Positions 13,965 through 18,201 of a stretch of DNA of 64,000 nucleotides are shown here, piece by piece. A program made the translations under genes and the position numbers. This DNA comes from Escherichia coli (lineage in GTDB: Bacteria; Pseudomonadota; Gammaproteobacteria; Enterobacterales; Enterobacteriaceae), in assembly GCF_041886205.1 (NCBI RefSeq), contig NZ_CP169029.1; one strand, 5' to 3'. How positions within the stretch are numbered: position 1 is the stretch's first letter; each line of letters starts with the position of its first letter. The notes beneath the pieces were generated by a model. That model worked only from the letters and a program-made list of their open reading frames with translations, ran no database searches and was not told where the DNA came from.

Positions 13965-15074
<1,110 letters not shown>

Positions 15075-15137
15075 TGGGCGGTATTCTGAAACGGCGATTG
15101 TCGTGAGAACAGAATGGTTGCACCAGAATACAGATAT

Positions 15138-15167
15138 AAAAAAACCGACATGACAGTCGGTTTTTTT
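15138..15167. terminator. bidirectional rho-independent terminator (A7-ccgac-atgaca-gtcgg-T7)
   Basis: 5-bp GC-rich stem flanked by A-run and T-run, 64 bp downstream of selU stop. Confidence 0.6.
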
Positions 15168-15226
15168 ATTTTTTCCGCCCAAGACTTGGTGGTTCCGGGC
15201 AGAAATGAAACAGTCCTCATCTAGCA
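15138..15226 (-). ncRNA. putative antisense sRNA (candidate type I antitoxin); ends approximate
   Basis: Minus-strand TTGAAT-17bp-TATAAT promoter (15232-15260), predicted transcript contains UGCUAGAUGAGGACUG complementary to 15397-15412, ends at the bidirectional terminator. Confidence 0.35.
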
Positions 15227-15231
15227 AGTGA

Positions 15232-15260
15232 ATTATAAGTCAGGATGCCTCCATATTCAA
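15232..15260 (-). promoter_or_regulatory. candidate sigma70 promoter for the putative sRNA
   Basis: -35 ttgaat (15255-15260), 17-bp spacer, perfect -10 tataat (15232-15237) on the minus strand. Confidence 0.35.
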
Positions 15261-15376
15261 ACAGCTATGTTGGCGATACAATCCCGACGCTAGTAGTGAT
15301 ACTGCCTCAAGGGATTACCGCAGTGCGGAAAAGTACTTTTAAGTCCTGGTCAGGATACAGGTGGTGCTGATTCTGG

Positions 15377-15385
15377 TGCTCTAAT
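15377..15385 (+). promoter_or_regulatory. candidate extended -10 promoter for the small-peptide mRNA
   Basis: tgctctaat resembles TGnTATAAT; -35 is poor. Confidence 0.25.
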
Positions 15386-15485
15386 TTGGAGAGAGGCAGT
15401 CCTCATCTAGCACATGAAGAAAATCATAGTTACAGGCAACGTAAGGGTAAGCTGTGATTGTCTTTCTCCCTTAAGGGAGCAACGG

Positions 15486-15569
15486 ATGAAAACTTTTCTC
15501 GATAAAGTTCTCATCGTTCTTAAGGCGCTAATCGCGCTGCTGGAACTGATCCGTCAGTTTATTGAATAA
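15486..15569 (+). CDS. 27-aa hydrophobic peptide MKTFLDKVLIVLKALIALLELIRQFIE, DinQ/TisB-like candidate type I toxin
   Basis: ATG preceded by aagggag SD 7 nt upstream; single amphipathic helix; own hairpin terminator; in-frame upstream ATG at 15414 would give 51 aa. Confidence 0.5.
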   Translation: MKTFLDKVLIVLKALIALLELIRQFIE

Positions 15570-15587
15570 CTGAGGAAACGTAGCTAA

Positions 15588-15615
15588 GGCCGAAGGTTTA
15601 CCACCTTCGGTCTTT
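15588..15615 (+). terminator. hairpin terminator after the small ORF
   Basis: ccgaaggt-ttacc-accttcgg stem-loop followed by TCTTT. Confidence 0.5.
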
Positions 15616-15670
15616 AAAAAAACCGACATGACAGTTGGTTTCATATTTATTGCCAAAATGCACACTGTTC

Positions 15671-15771
<101 letters not shown>

Positions 15772-15786
15772 ATCTAACACCTGTCA

Positions 15787-18201
15787 TCACCCCGCAAACT
15801 GCCTGAACAGCGCCTTACCCTTAACCAGTCTCGCGCCCAGCCAGCCGCCGAAAAGCGACAGCAGCAGCGCACCGCTGCACGGCAGAACAATCCACAATCG
15901 CCAGTCTGGCTCCCACGGGAAATCAAACACTTTCGCCTGCAACACTGCCAGTGCCGTTTCCGCACCAATTGCGGCCACCAGGCCGGAAACAAACCCAAGC
16001 ATGGCGAACTCACACCACAATGTCGTGCGCAGCAGTTTTTTCCCCGCACCGAGTGTGCGCCATACCACCAGCTCCTGATGACGCTGGCGCATTCCCACCT
16101 GCACCTGTGCCAGCAACAGCAACATACCGCAGGCGGTGACCAGCACCACCATCACCTCCAGCGCCCGACTTACCTGCTCCAGCACCTGACCGACCTGTTT
16201 TAAAATCGCGCCAATATCTAACAGGCTAATGGTCGGGAACTGGCGGTTGAGTTGCGTCAACATGCCGTTGCCATTCTCCCAGCGGAAACTGGTAAGCCAG
16301 CTCTGCGGTTGCCCGTCTAATGCCCCTTCCGGGAAAATAAAATAGAAATTAGGCCGCAGACTTTCCCAGTCCACTTTGCGCAGGCTGGTCACTTTAGCGC
16401 GGAACTCCTGGGTATCGCCCATAAAAGTCACGGTATCACCGAGGGCAACGTTTAAGCGTTTCGCCAGCCCCTCTTCCATCGACACTTCATCGGCTTTTGG
16501 CGGCCAGTTACCGGCGACAATCGGATTATGATCGGGCCGCGTATTTTGCCAGGTAAGATTGAGTTCGCGATTAAGCGCCTCATCTTCATTACCTTCTGTC
16601 GGCTTATCGTTAATCGCCGTCAGCCGCGCCCGCACTACCGGATAAAATGATTCCGGGACTATATGATGTTCCGCGAGGAACGCTTTTAGCGGTGCTACCT
16701 GTTCTGTGGCGATGTTAATTAAAAAGTAGTTCGGGCTTTCTGGCGGTAGCTGCTGCTGCCAGCGGTCGAGCAGATCGCCACGCAATACCAGCAACAGCGC
16801 CAGCAGCATAAAGGAGAGCGAAAATGCCGAAAGCTGACTTAACGTTGACCACGGCTGACGTAACAGGCGGCTAACCGCCAGGCGCAGAGGCAGCGATTTC
16901 AGCGTCATGCGGCGAAGTACATTCAGCAGCATCCAGCCCAGCACACCGCACAGCAAAGCCAGTACTACCGCGCCAGCCAGCACCGCCCAAAGCAGCATGC
17001 TGCCACCCATTAATCCGGCGAGCAGCAGCACAACCACCACACTGACAATCGGCAGATAAAACTTCAGCGGCCAGACGTTCGCTACCACATCATTACGTAA
17101 TACGCGTAAAGGCTGCGTTGCCAGCAACAAGCGATATGGTCGTAGCCCCACCAGCAGCGAGATGACCGTCATGGTGCCCAGCGCCCACAACCACGGCCAG
17201 AGGCTGGCTGGCGGTAGTGCAGCAGGCAGAACGGGCTTGAGCAGCACCATCAACACGTTTTCGAACAACAGGCCTATGGCCCCACCGGTAACGGCTGAAA
17301 GCGCCAGCACCATCAACCACTGACCGACGATTAGCTTACGCAGTTGCGCTCGCCCTGCCCCCAGCGTTTTGAGGATCGCCACCAGATCGTAGCGACTGCG
17401 ACAGTAATGATTCATCGCCACCGCCACCGCTGCCACTGCCAGCAGCAAGGTCAGAAGCGCCGAAAGCAGCAGGAACTGCTGCGAGCGTTCCATCGATCGC
17501 CCCAGCGCGCCTTCGTCCTGTTCCAGACCGTACCAGCGTTGTTCGGGTTTAAGCTGGGGTAACAACCATTTCTCATAGCCGTCGAGCTGGTTCTCGTTGC
17601 CGCCGAATTTATAACGCCAGGTGACCCGACTCCCCGGCTGCACGGCTCCGGTTTTATCGACATCCGCCAGATTCATCATCAGACGCGGAGCCATCTGGAA
17701 GGGGTTAAAACCAGAATCCGGTTCCTGAATCACTTCTCCGGCAATCCGCAAGGTGGCATCGCCCACGTCGATGGTGTCGCCTGTTTTCAGGTTAAGCAGC
17801 GCCATCAGGCGTGGGGCCAGCAATACGCTGCCCGCCTGCGGTTTCAGGCCAGGGGGATTAGTTTGCAGATCGCCATACATCGGGTAGATATCATCCACCG
17901 CTTTGACGTTCGCCAGCTGCGGTGTGTCGCCTGCAAATGTCATGGTGGCGAAAGTCAGCTGCTTGCCGACTTTCAGGCCGCGCTTTTGCGCTTCCTCCAG
18001 CCACGCTTGCGGCACTTCGCGCGAACTGCGCAACGCCCGATCGCCCGCCATAAACTCACGGCTTTGCTGGCTTAAGCCCTTCTCCATGCGATCGCTGATA
18101 TTGCCCAGCGCCAGCACGCAGGCCACCGCCAGGCTTAGCGCCAGCCAGACAATTAATAGCGACGGCGAACGCCATTCGCGCCAGAACCAACGTGCAATCA
18201 T
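15787..18201 (-). CDS. ybbP: ABC transporter permease (FtsX-like)
   Basis: 804-aa ORF with two FtsX-type membrane domains, overlaps ybbA by 4 bp. Confidence 0.88.
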   Translation of the reverse strand: MIARWFWREWRSPSLLIVWLALSLAVACVLALGNISDRMEKGLSQQSREFMAGDRALRSSREVPQAWLEEAQKRGLKVGKQLTFATMTFAGDTPQLANVKAVDDIYPMYGDLQTNPPGLKPQAGSVLLAPRLMALLNLKTGDTIDVGDATLRIAGEVIQEPDSGFNPFQMAPRLMMNLADVDKTGAVQPGSRVTWRYKFGGNENQLDGYEKWLLPQLKPEQRWYGLEQDEGALGRSMERSQQFLLLSALLTLLLAVAAVAVAMNHYCRSRYDLVAILKTLGAGRAQLRKLIVGQWLMVLALSAVTGGAIGLLFENVLMVLLKPVLPAALPPASLWPWLWALGTMTVISLLVGLRPYRLLLATQPLRVLRNDVVANVWPLKFYLPIVSVVVVLLLAGLMGGSMLLWAVLAGAVVLALLCGVLGWMLLNVLRRMTLKSLPLRLAVSRLLRQPWSTLSQLSAFSLSFMLLALLLVLRGDLLDRWQQQLPPESPNYFLINIATEQVAPLKAFLAEHHIVPESFYPVVRARLTAINDKPTEGNEDEALNRELNLTWQNTRPDHNPIVAGNWPPKADEVSMEEGLAKRLNVALGDTVTFMGDTQEFRAKVTSLRKVDWESLRPNFYFIFPEGALDGQPQSWLTSFRWENGNGMLTQLNRQFPTISLLDIGAILKQVGQVLEQVSRALEVMVVLVTACGMLLLLAQVQVGMRQRHQELVVWRTLGAGKKLLRTTLWCEFAMLGFVSGLVAAIGAETALAVLQAKVFDFPWEPDWRLWIVLPCSGALLLSLFGGWLGARLVKGKALFRQFAG

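Follow-up and report, generated by a model that had tools for sequence, protein, structure and literature searches.

A probable dql/Agr toxin-antitoxin locus between selU and ybbP of Escherichia coli, bracketed by two copies of an Agr-type terminator hairpin

Two nearly identical hairpins bracket a small sRNA/peptide module between selU and ybbP in the 64-kb window of Escherichia coli DNA analysed here, the window being the whole stretch at its full length. Taken together, the evidence makes it probable that this module is an old dql/Agr locus, that the two repeats are copies of the terminator of its Agr sRNA, and that they act as a substrate for deletion and not as an integration site. Judged by its sequence, the module belongs to the 'dql' family and represents a paralogue, on the chromosome, of dinQ-agrAB, a type I toxin-antitoxin locus of E. 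coli. Among complete E. coli genomes, this locus is visibly decaying by a 108-bp deletion that kills the toxin gene, a 568-bp deletion of the full locus, a precise loss of 478 bp and replacement by rhs.

Results

The module has the architecture of dinQ/agrB

The positions of all features are given in Table 1. On the minus strand, the Rfam model for AgrB (RF02891) matches positions 15224 to 15136 over its entire length (1-84 of 84) with 53.6 bits, the gathering score being 40, and, to judge from the promoter-like site, the putative sRNA would begin about 7 nt before the 5' end of this match at 15224. The 27-aa peptide encoded on the plus strand reaches 40.9 bits with the NCBIfam model NF041472 (toxin_DinQ; cutoff 30) and remains, with 24.5 against 35, below the cutoff of the DqlB model (NF041473); relatives of the peptide carry the Pfam domain PF28061 (DinQ). 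The resulting arrangement is the one expected for DinQ/AgrB: the predicted toxin is a small, hydrophobic single-pass peptide that fits the DinQ profile, the AgrB-type sRNA gene lies divergent and 5' of the toxin gene without overlapping it, and the 5' end of the sRNA is complementary to the 5' UTR of the toxin mRNA. For the duplex of the Agr-like RNA and the toxin mRNA, RNAduplex returned -73.7 kcal/mol, compared to -44.7 +/- 3.7 kcal/mol when the 5' part of the sRNA was shuffled.

Table 1 Features of the selU-ybbP junction. Positions refer to the 64-kb window; +, plus strand; -, minus strand.
Feature	Position	Strand	Basis or remark
selU / mnmH, tRNA 2-selenouridine synthase, upstream flank	13980-15074	+	364-aa ORF; mnmH in matching RefSeq genomes
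Left flank of copy 1	15091-15137		Missing from B2-type empty allele; present in solo alleles
Hairpin repeat copy 1	15138-15163; full palindrome 15136-15169	both	14-bp stem, A7/T7 arms; 3' end of Rfam AgrB match
AgrB-like antitoxin sRNA gene (putative), 89 nt	15136-15224	-	Rfam RF02891; aligns with K-12 agrA
Antisense repeat, Agr side	15211-15232		22 nt, 91% identical (20/22) to 15397-15418
Promoter-like site of Agr-like sRNA	15232-15260	-	TTGAAT-17-TATAAT
Putative toxin mRNA promoter	15254-15282	+	TATTCA-17-TACAAT; relaxed scan; aligns with dinQ promoter region
Antisense repeat, target site in toxin mRNA 5' UTR	15397-15418	+	Repeat search
DinQ-family type I toxin ORF, 27 aa, MKTFLDKVLIVLKALIALLELIRQFIE	15487-15569	+	NCBIfam NF041472; RefSeq dinQ
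Terminator hairpin of toxin mRNA	15586-15614	+	GGCCGAAGG...CCTTCGGTC + TTT; fold; homologous to K-12 dinQ terminator
Hairpin repeat copy 2	15616-15641; extended similarity 15615-15654		Repeat search, shuffle test, fold
REP element pair	15667-15770		Sub-threshold naRNA4 and ES036 matches
ybbP, ABC transporter permease, downstream flank, convergent with selU	15787-18201	-	804-aa ORF; RefSeq annotation

RefSeq already names the 27-aa ORF dinQ in the matching genomes, and the Agr-like sRNA is missing from the RefSeq feature tables of the genomes examined. Many gene callers report an in-frame, upstream-extended toxin ORF of 51 aa (15414-15569; a cluster of 51 sequence variants); it is the 27-aa form, not the 51-aa form, that fits the DinQ profile and the experimentally defined length of DinQ. 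The -35 elements of the two putative promoters, TATTCA of the toxin (15254-15259) and TTGAAT of the divergent Agr gene (15260-15255), overlap back to back.

The LexA operator that marks the promoter of dinQ proper as a member of the SOS regulon was not found at this locus: the toxin promoter region contains no CTG-N10-CAG, and its best site agrees with the LexA consensus in 11 of 20 positions, compared to 15 of 20 for CTGTATGATTATCCAG of K-12 dinQ, which served as positive control. Since there is no LexA box, the label 'damage-inducible' in RefSeq was probably inherited from the name of the profile.

The two hairpins are copies of an Agr terminator

Copy 1 (AAAAAAACCGACATGACAGTCGGTTT) and copy 2 (AAAAAAACCGACATGACAGTTGGTTT) of the 26-mer differ by one C/T mismatch (25 of 26 bases identical) and start 478 bp apart. 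When up to three mismatches were allowed, the 64-kb window contained no match other than these two, and no match was obtained in 100 dinucleotide-preserving shuffles of the window. With two copies in 64 kb, the repeat does not show, within this window, the many copies of a dispersed (REP/BIME-like) family. In the repeat search, the similarity of the pair extended to 40 nt at 83% identity (15137-15176 versus 15615-15654). The first-pass annotation of this DNA had described such a pair of 26-bp terminator hairpins, 478 bp apart and with one mismatch, bracketing an sRNA/peptide unit with selU upstream and a REP pair and ybbP downstream. This description holds in all its parts: the ORFs identify both flanking genes, REP-type matches lie at 15667-15703 and 15707-15749, and the bracketed unit consists of the AgrB-like sRNA and the DinQ-family toxin.

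The folds of the two copies are of different quality. Copy 1 forms the centre of a palindrome with 14 perfectly paired bp, ATAAAAAAACCGAC / GTCGGTTTTTTTAT, and scores as an intrinsic (Rho-independent) terminator, with a GC-containing stem and a U-tract, on both the plus and the minus strand. Copy 2 forms an 8-bp stem and has these properties only in part: on the plus strand, the variant base gives rise to a G.U pair and the tail reads CAUAUUUAUU, so that the U-tract is interrupted, and on the minus strand, where the tail is U7, the variant base leads to an A.C mismatch in the stem. At this diagnostic base, position 22 of the repeat, 8 of 8 module alleles sampled had a C in copy 1, whereas their copy 2 had a T. 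Copy 2 starts 1 nt past the terminator hairpin of the toxin mRNA itself, the U-tract of which consists only of UUU and is followed by A7.

By its fold and its place within the Rfam match, copy 1 is the predicted terminator of the module's own Agr-like sRNA and, because it is a perfect palindrome with A7 and T7 arms, it probably terminates selU on the plus strand as well. The same stem, AAAAAAACCGAC/GTCGGTTTTTTT, is present in K-12 agrA and agrB, in the Agr gene of E. albertii, in one Salmonella conjugative-element locus and in one Yersiniaceae dql/Agr locus. The loops of the Agr terminators differ, being AAAGTGAAT in a distant enterobacterial relative (contig L149, see below) and 5 nt long in K-12 agrA/B; both E. 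coli copies of the repeat have the 6-nt loop ATGACA. Approximately 12 nt of the outer flank of copy 1 resemble the flanks of the K-12 agr genes (GAATaCaGATaT versus GAATcCgGATgT). A second hairpin downstream of the toxin gene was seen in none of the eight other dinQ/dql loci that we compared, namely those of K-12 and E. albertii, two IncX1 plasmid dql loci, an integrase-linked and a conjugative-element locus of Salmonella, and two loci of Yersiniaceae. Because the loop ATGACA is common to both copies and copy 2 is without counterpart elsewhere, copy 2 is, on this comparison, a lineage-specific duplicate of copy 1, or a hairpin kept identical to it by gene conversion, and no independent resident terminator.

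Hairpins composed of an A-run, CCGAC and a T-run are common, and two unrelated terminators could look alike by chance or convergence; the loose motif AAAAAACCGAC-N4-7-GTYGGTTT indeed occurs at at least 120 unrelated loci across bacteria of many phyla, and the native agr locus of E. albertii was the one relevant locus among the matches listed. However, the likeness of the two copies covers 25 of 26 bases including the whole loop, the shuffled windows yielded nothing comparable, and the loop differs in every other Agr terminator examined. The identity of the loops in effect refutes a chance resemblance, whose probability we regard as practically nil.

Copy 2 may have arisen by a small local duplication or may be a relic of a tandem array. 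The latter would mean that two [Agr-toxin] units once lay head to tail, comparable to agrA/agrB of K-12 or zorO/zorP of O157, with copy 2 and approximately 13 nt behind it representing the surviving 3' end of the second Agr gene, the remainder of which was deleted; this concerns the origin of copy 2 only and is compatible with the dql/Agr reading given at the outset. The extension of the similarity past the hairpin to 40 nt and the orientation of copy 2, which is the one that a second Agr gene would give, are in line with such an array, as are a 231-bp tandem duplication of the Agr unit in K-12 (agrA/agrB), where the same terminator occurs twice, and the end of the B2-type deletion (see below) 4 nt past the extended repeat. 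On the other hand, the additional 13 nt are T-rich and of low information, with 7 of 13 positions matching, an Rfam search detected no Agr-like signal to the right of copy 2, and neither a two-unit allele nor the reciprocal junction of a tandem duplication was present in any of 5426 complete genomes. We consider a tandem origin possible, albeit rather unlikely. Upstream of an IncX1 plasmid dql gene, a 15-nt repeat at a distance of 476 bp looked like a further tandem relic but proved to be a chance resemblance.

As to its function, copy 2 most likely gives the toxin mRNA a second, back-up terminator, or halts transcripts that leave ybbP and would otherwise enter the toxin gene in antisense, or does both. 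A further reading, which appears highly improbable, is that toxin transcripts read through to copy 2, end there and thereby acquire a second antisense target for the Agr sRNA, since their 3' hairpin would be an exact sense copy of the terminator hairpin of that sRNA. The loops AUGACA and UGUCAU of the two hairpins would be complementary and could form a kissing complex, and the full duplex of the two hairpins is calculated to be 17 kcal/mol more stable than the two folded monomers. If true, such kissing hairpins would place the dql locus under two-site (5' and 3') antisense control, which to our knowledge is not known for dinQ/agrB.

The module occupies a single chromosomal site

The distribution of the module was assessed in 5426 complete E. 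coli genomes, with the 568-bp segment 15091-15658 as query. The module was detected in 1332 genomes, in 1314 of them at a coverage of at least 80%, always at the chromosomal selU-ybbP locus; the median number of places per genome was one, and the identity was at least 95% except in a single record. The one full-length match examined in a record labelled as plasmid belongs to a 1.2-Mb record carrying allS-mnmH-ybbP. Several sites, carriage by mobile elements or a recombinase would be expected of a mobile unit; the module was found at one locus in 1332 genomes, and the ORFs of the window include no recombinase gene between selU and ybbP. Citrobacter and Salmonella have a different ABC-transporter operon after selU and are therefore unusable as comparators for this junction. 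On a metagenome contig with an intact module (L152, 1342-4074), purE-purK lies directly upstream of selU in place of allS; the allantoin region of this lineage appears to be missing or rearranged.

In 549 of the 5426 genomes, including S88, selU and ybbP are adjacent and there is not a single copy of the 26-mer. The junction of this hairpin-less (B2-type) allele reads ...attctg|tgcacgctg..., and the gap comprises 15091-15658, reaching past copy 1 by 47 bp on the left and past copy 2 by 17 bp on the right; NRG 857C gave the same short match on the ybbP side. The REP content of hairpin-less alleles (L001-L003, 790-1010) varies, with none in AH21F008, one pair in isolate 127 and two pairs in CREC7837.

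A synthetic junction made of the left flank, one 26-mer and the right flank was found in exactly five of the 5426 genomes (AR_0077, PapM-32-1, PapRG-04-4, GF131 and LR-28), which thus carry a solo hairpin and no module. The diagnostic base of the solo hairpin is C in AR_0077 and GF131, and T in PapM-32-1, PapRG-04-4 and LR-28. The variants in their right flanks (cagattt/catattt; gccggatg/gccagatg) match combinations that segregate among the module alleles. Over 1.5 kb, the solo alleles are 98.3-98.7% identical to the nearest module allele (1.3-1.7% diverged), and their flanks are mosaic.

In 190 of the 5426 genomes, all of them counted among the carriers of the module, 108 bp are deleted between the 10-bp direct repeats agt(c/t)ctcatc (window approximately 15399-15515). 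Through this deletion (L004, 1090-1110; L005, 1090-1105), the toxin gene loses its Shine-Dalgarno sequence, its ATG and the codons that follow, and the two hairpins as well as the Agr-like gene are spared. A 'dinQ' CDS nevertheless continues to be annotated at this place in some RefSeq records.

Alleles bearing rhs, which the first-pass annotation had suggested looking for at this junction together with single-copy sites, do exist (O157, K-12), and they diverge from the window at varied points, O157 after 15123 and K-12 at the selU stop codon. On the ybbP side, the rhs-bearing alleles examined (O157 and K-12) share sequence with the window only from 15781 onward. The ST131 allele diverges inside the 3' end of selU: in genomes of this type (L009, 1665-3165; L153), the last approximately 10 codons of selU are replaced, three DUF2931-family genes follow, and neither the module nor rhs is found after selU.

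The solo sites fit deletion between the repeats

One distant enterobacterial relative was available for comparison, a contig (L149) that has itself lost the stretch in which copy 2 would be expected; its selU and ybbP are approximately 82-83% identical to those of the window at the nucleotide level, and its MnmH protein is 89% identical. Downstream of selU, one collinear BLAST match, which reaches to 15250, shows that this contig has the left flank in diverged form, followed by the hairpin with the Agr-like gene; after that, it joins ybbP directly. This orphan Agr-like gene (L149, 1221-1405; hairpin loop AAAGTGAAT) abuts the stop codon of ybbP; the toxin gene, the second hairpin and the REP elements are absent, and the -35 box of the sRNA is lost.

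As the left flank and the Agr gene occupy this site in the relative as well, the locus is old at selU-ybbP. The hairpin-less allele, without the left flank that is kept in the relative and, up to 15123, in O157, is a derived deletion. Solo alleles of both the C type and the T type, on flanks like those of module alleles, fit recurrent deletion between the two repeats. Crossovers within the repeat, to one or the other side of the diagnostic base, would yield such alleles, in at least two and probably three events. The number of events is uncertain, because some of these sites could instead go back to a single older solo allele that recombination has spread, and the reciprocal junction of a tandem duplication was absent from the 5426 genomes.

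These data bear on the proposal of the first-pass annotation that the module is a cassette duplicated or inserted at a terminator. In that case, a resident terminator between selU and ybbP would have been the target, duplicated by a cassette of approximately 480 bp in the manner of a target site or att site, and the solo alleles would be ancestral sites. Five genomes with exactly the left flank, one 26-mer and the right flank are what this proposal predicts, and the solo alleles are no very close kin of the module alleles sampled. However, the hairpin, which is conserved at other dinQ/dql loci, and its outer flank are Agr-derived and not derived from the target; the distant relative has the hairpin together with the Agr gene; and the solo alleles carry the base of either copy 1 or copy 2 on the flanks of different module haplotypes. 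Furthermore, the abundant empty allele lacks the hairpin altogether and its gap ends outside both repeats, and the module is confined to one locus in 1332 genomes, with neither a plasmid or phage copy nor a recombinase. A duplication of 26-40 bp is also a poor fit to the target-site duplications of transposons. The single-copy sites that had been sought do exist, and we find them better explained by secondary deletion; insertion of a cassette is thus very unlikely.

A 5-bp target-site duplication, TGCAC at 15119-15123 and 15659-15663, was considered and rejected, as the synthetic true-empty junction was present in 0 of 5426 genomes and the left flank continues unbroken into the Agr gene in the distant relative. 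The rhs-side junction of O157 lies at 15123/15124 (L007, 1533/1534), immediately past the left TGCAC.

Discussion

A model for the locus and its decay

By analogy with dinQ/agrB, we propose that an 89-nt AgrB-like sRNA is made from the minus strand and that its 5' end would pair with the 5' UTR of the divergent mRNA for a 27-aa membrane peptide, which would block translation of the toxin and trigger cleavage of the mRNA. Copy 1 would stop both the Agr-like sRNA and selU. Copy 2, presumably a duplicate of copy 1 that arose in the E. coli lineage, lies behind the weak terminator of the toxin (a stem and then UUU only), where it may back up this terminator or halt convergent transcription from ybbP before it runs antisense through the toxin gene. 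The two hairpins also act as short direct repeats: now and then, the 478-bp unit is lost with precision and one hybrid hairpin is left behind, presumably through slipped misalignment or short-homology recombination.

Approximately one in four complete E. coli genomes has, under the name 'dinQ', a toxin gene that is in fact a distinct paralogue and probably not SOS-responsive. The alleles at this junction offer a natural decay series of a chromosomal type I locus, comprising intact, toxin-dead, solo-hairpin, fully deleted, orphan-antitoxin and rhs-replaced forms. They also provide a small worked example of terminator hairpins as deletion substrates, and no new kind of mobile cassette; the importance of the finding is modest.

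Comparison with known systems

The architecture of dinQ/agrB consists of a divergent Agr sRNA and the DinQ toxin (Weel-Sneve 2013, PMC3567139; Kristiansen 2016, PMC5066626). The whole unit described here, from the Agr terminator to the dinQ terminator, is approximately 70% identical to K-12 dinQ-agrA at the nucleotide level. Shared with K-12 dinQ-agrAB are the divergent, non-overlapping Agr sRNA, the conserved stem of its terminator and the repeat-based antisense pairing of its 5' end to the 5' UTR of the toxin mRNA. The 27-aa hydrophobic peptide likewise resembles K-12 DinQ; ALIALLELIR is present in both, and the toxin terminator is in both cases a stem followed by CUUUAA. The differences from K-12 lie in the site, which is selU-ybbP here and arsR-gor in K-12, in the number of Agr genes, with one here and agrA plus agrB in K-12, in the LexA box, absent here and present at K-12 dinQ, and in the terminator of the Agr gene, an additional copy of which follows the toxin gene here but not in K-12.

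DinQ-like (dql) genes, dqlA and dqlB, have been described from chromosomes and plasmids of Enterobacteriaceae (Kristiansen 2016, PMC5066626). Like these, the DinQ paralogue of the present locus has a putative sigma-70-type promoter, occurs in strains other than K-12 and has already been annotated automatically. The plasmid dqlB loci are only 67-77% identical to it, over part of the mRNA, and, unlike this locus, none of the dql loci examined has a bracketing hairpin repeat. The peptide closest to the toxin, VKALLDKVLIVLKALVALLELIRQFID, is encoded in Salmonella next to an integrase. On either side of the Agr-dql unit of this closest relative (L143), which lies beside the phage-type integrase, there is a copy of an AT-rich direct repeat of 23 nt (2183-2205 and 2785-2807), with a spacing of 602 bp; these repeats could be due to chance in AT-rich DNA or be a real boundary. 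We found no description of a bracketing hairpin duplication in the papers that we searched.

The locus also resembles known cases of deletion between short direct repeats, in that the precise loss of 478 bp yields a single repeat of hybrid origin, the crossover lying now to the left and now to the right of the diagnostic base, and in that the 108-bp toxin deletion at the same locus took place between 10-bp repeats. It differs from them in that the repeats here are themselves RNA hairpins. Altogether, the module belongs to the DinQ/AgrB-dql family, which is known, and its protein is already annotated; the duplication of its hairpin is an architectural detail, not a new system.
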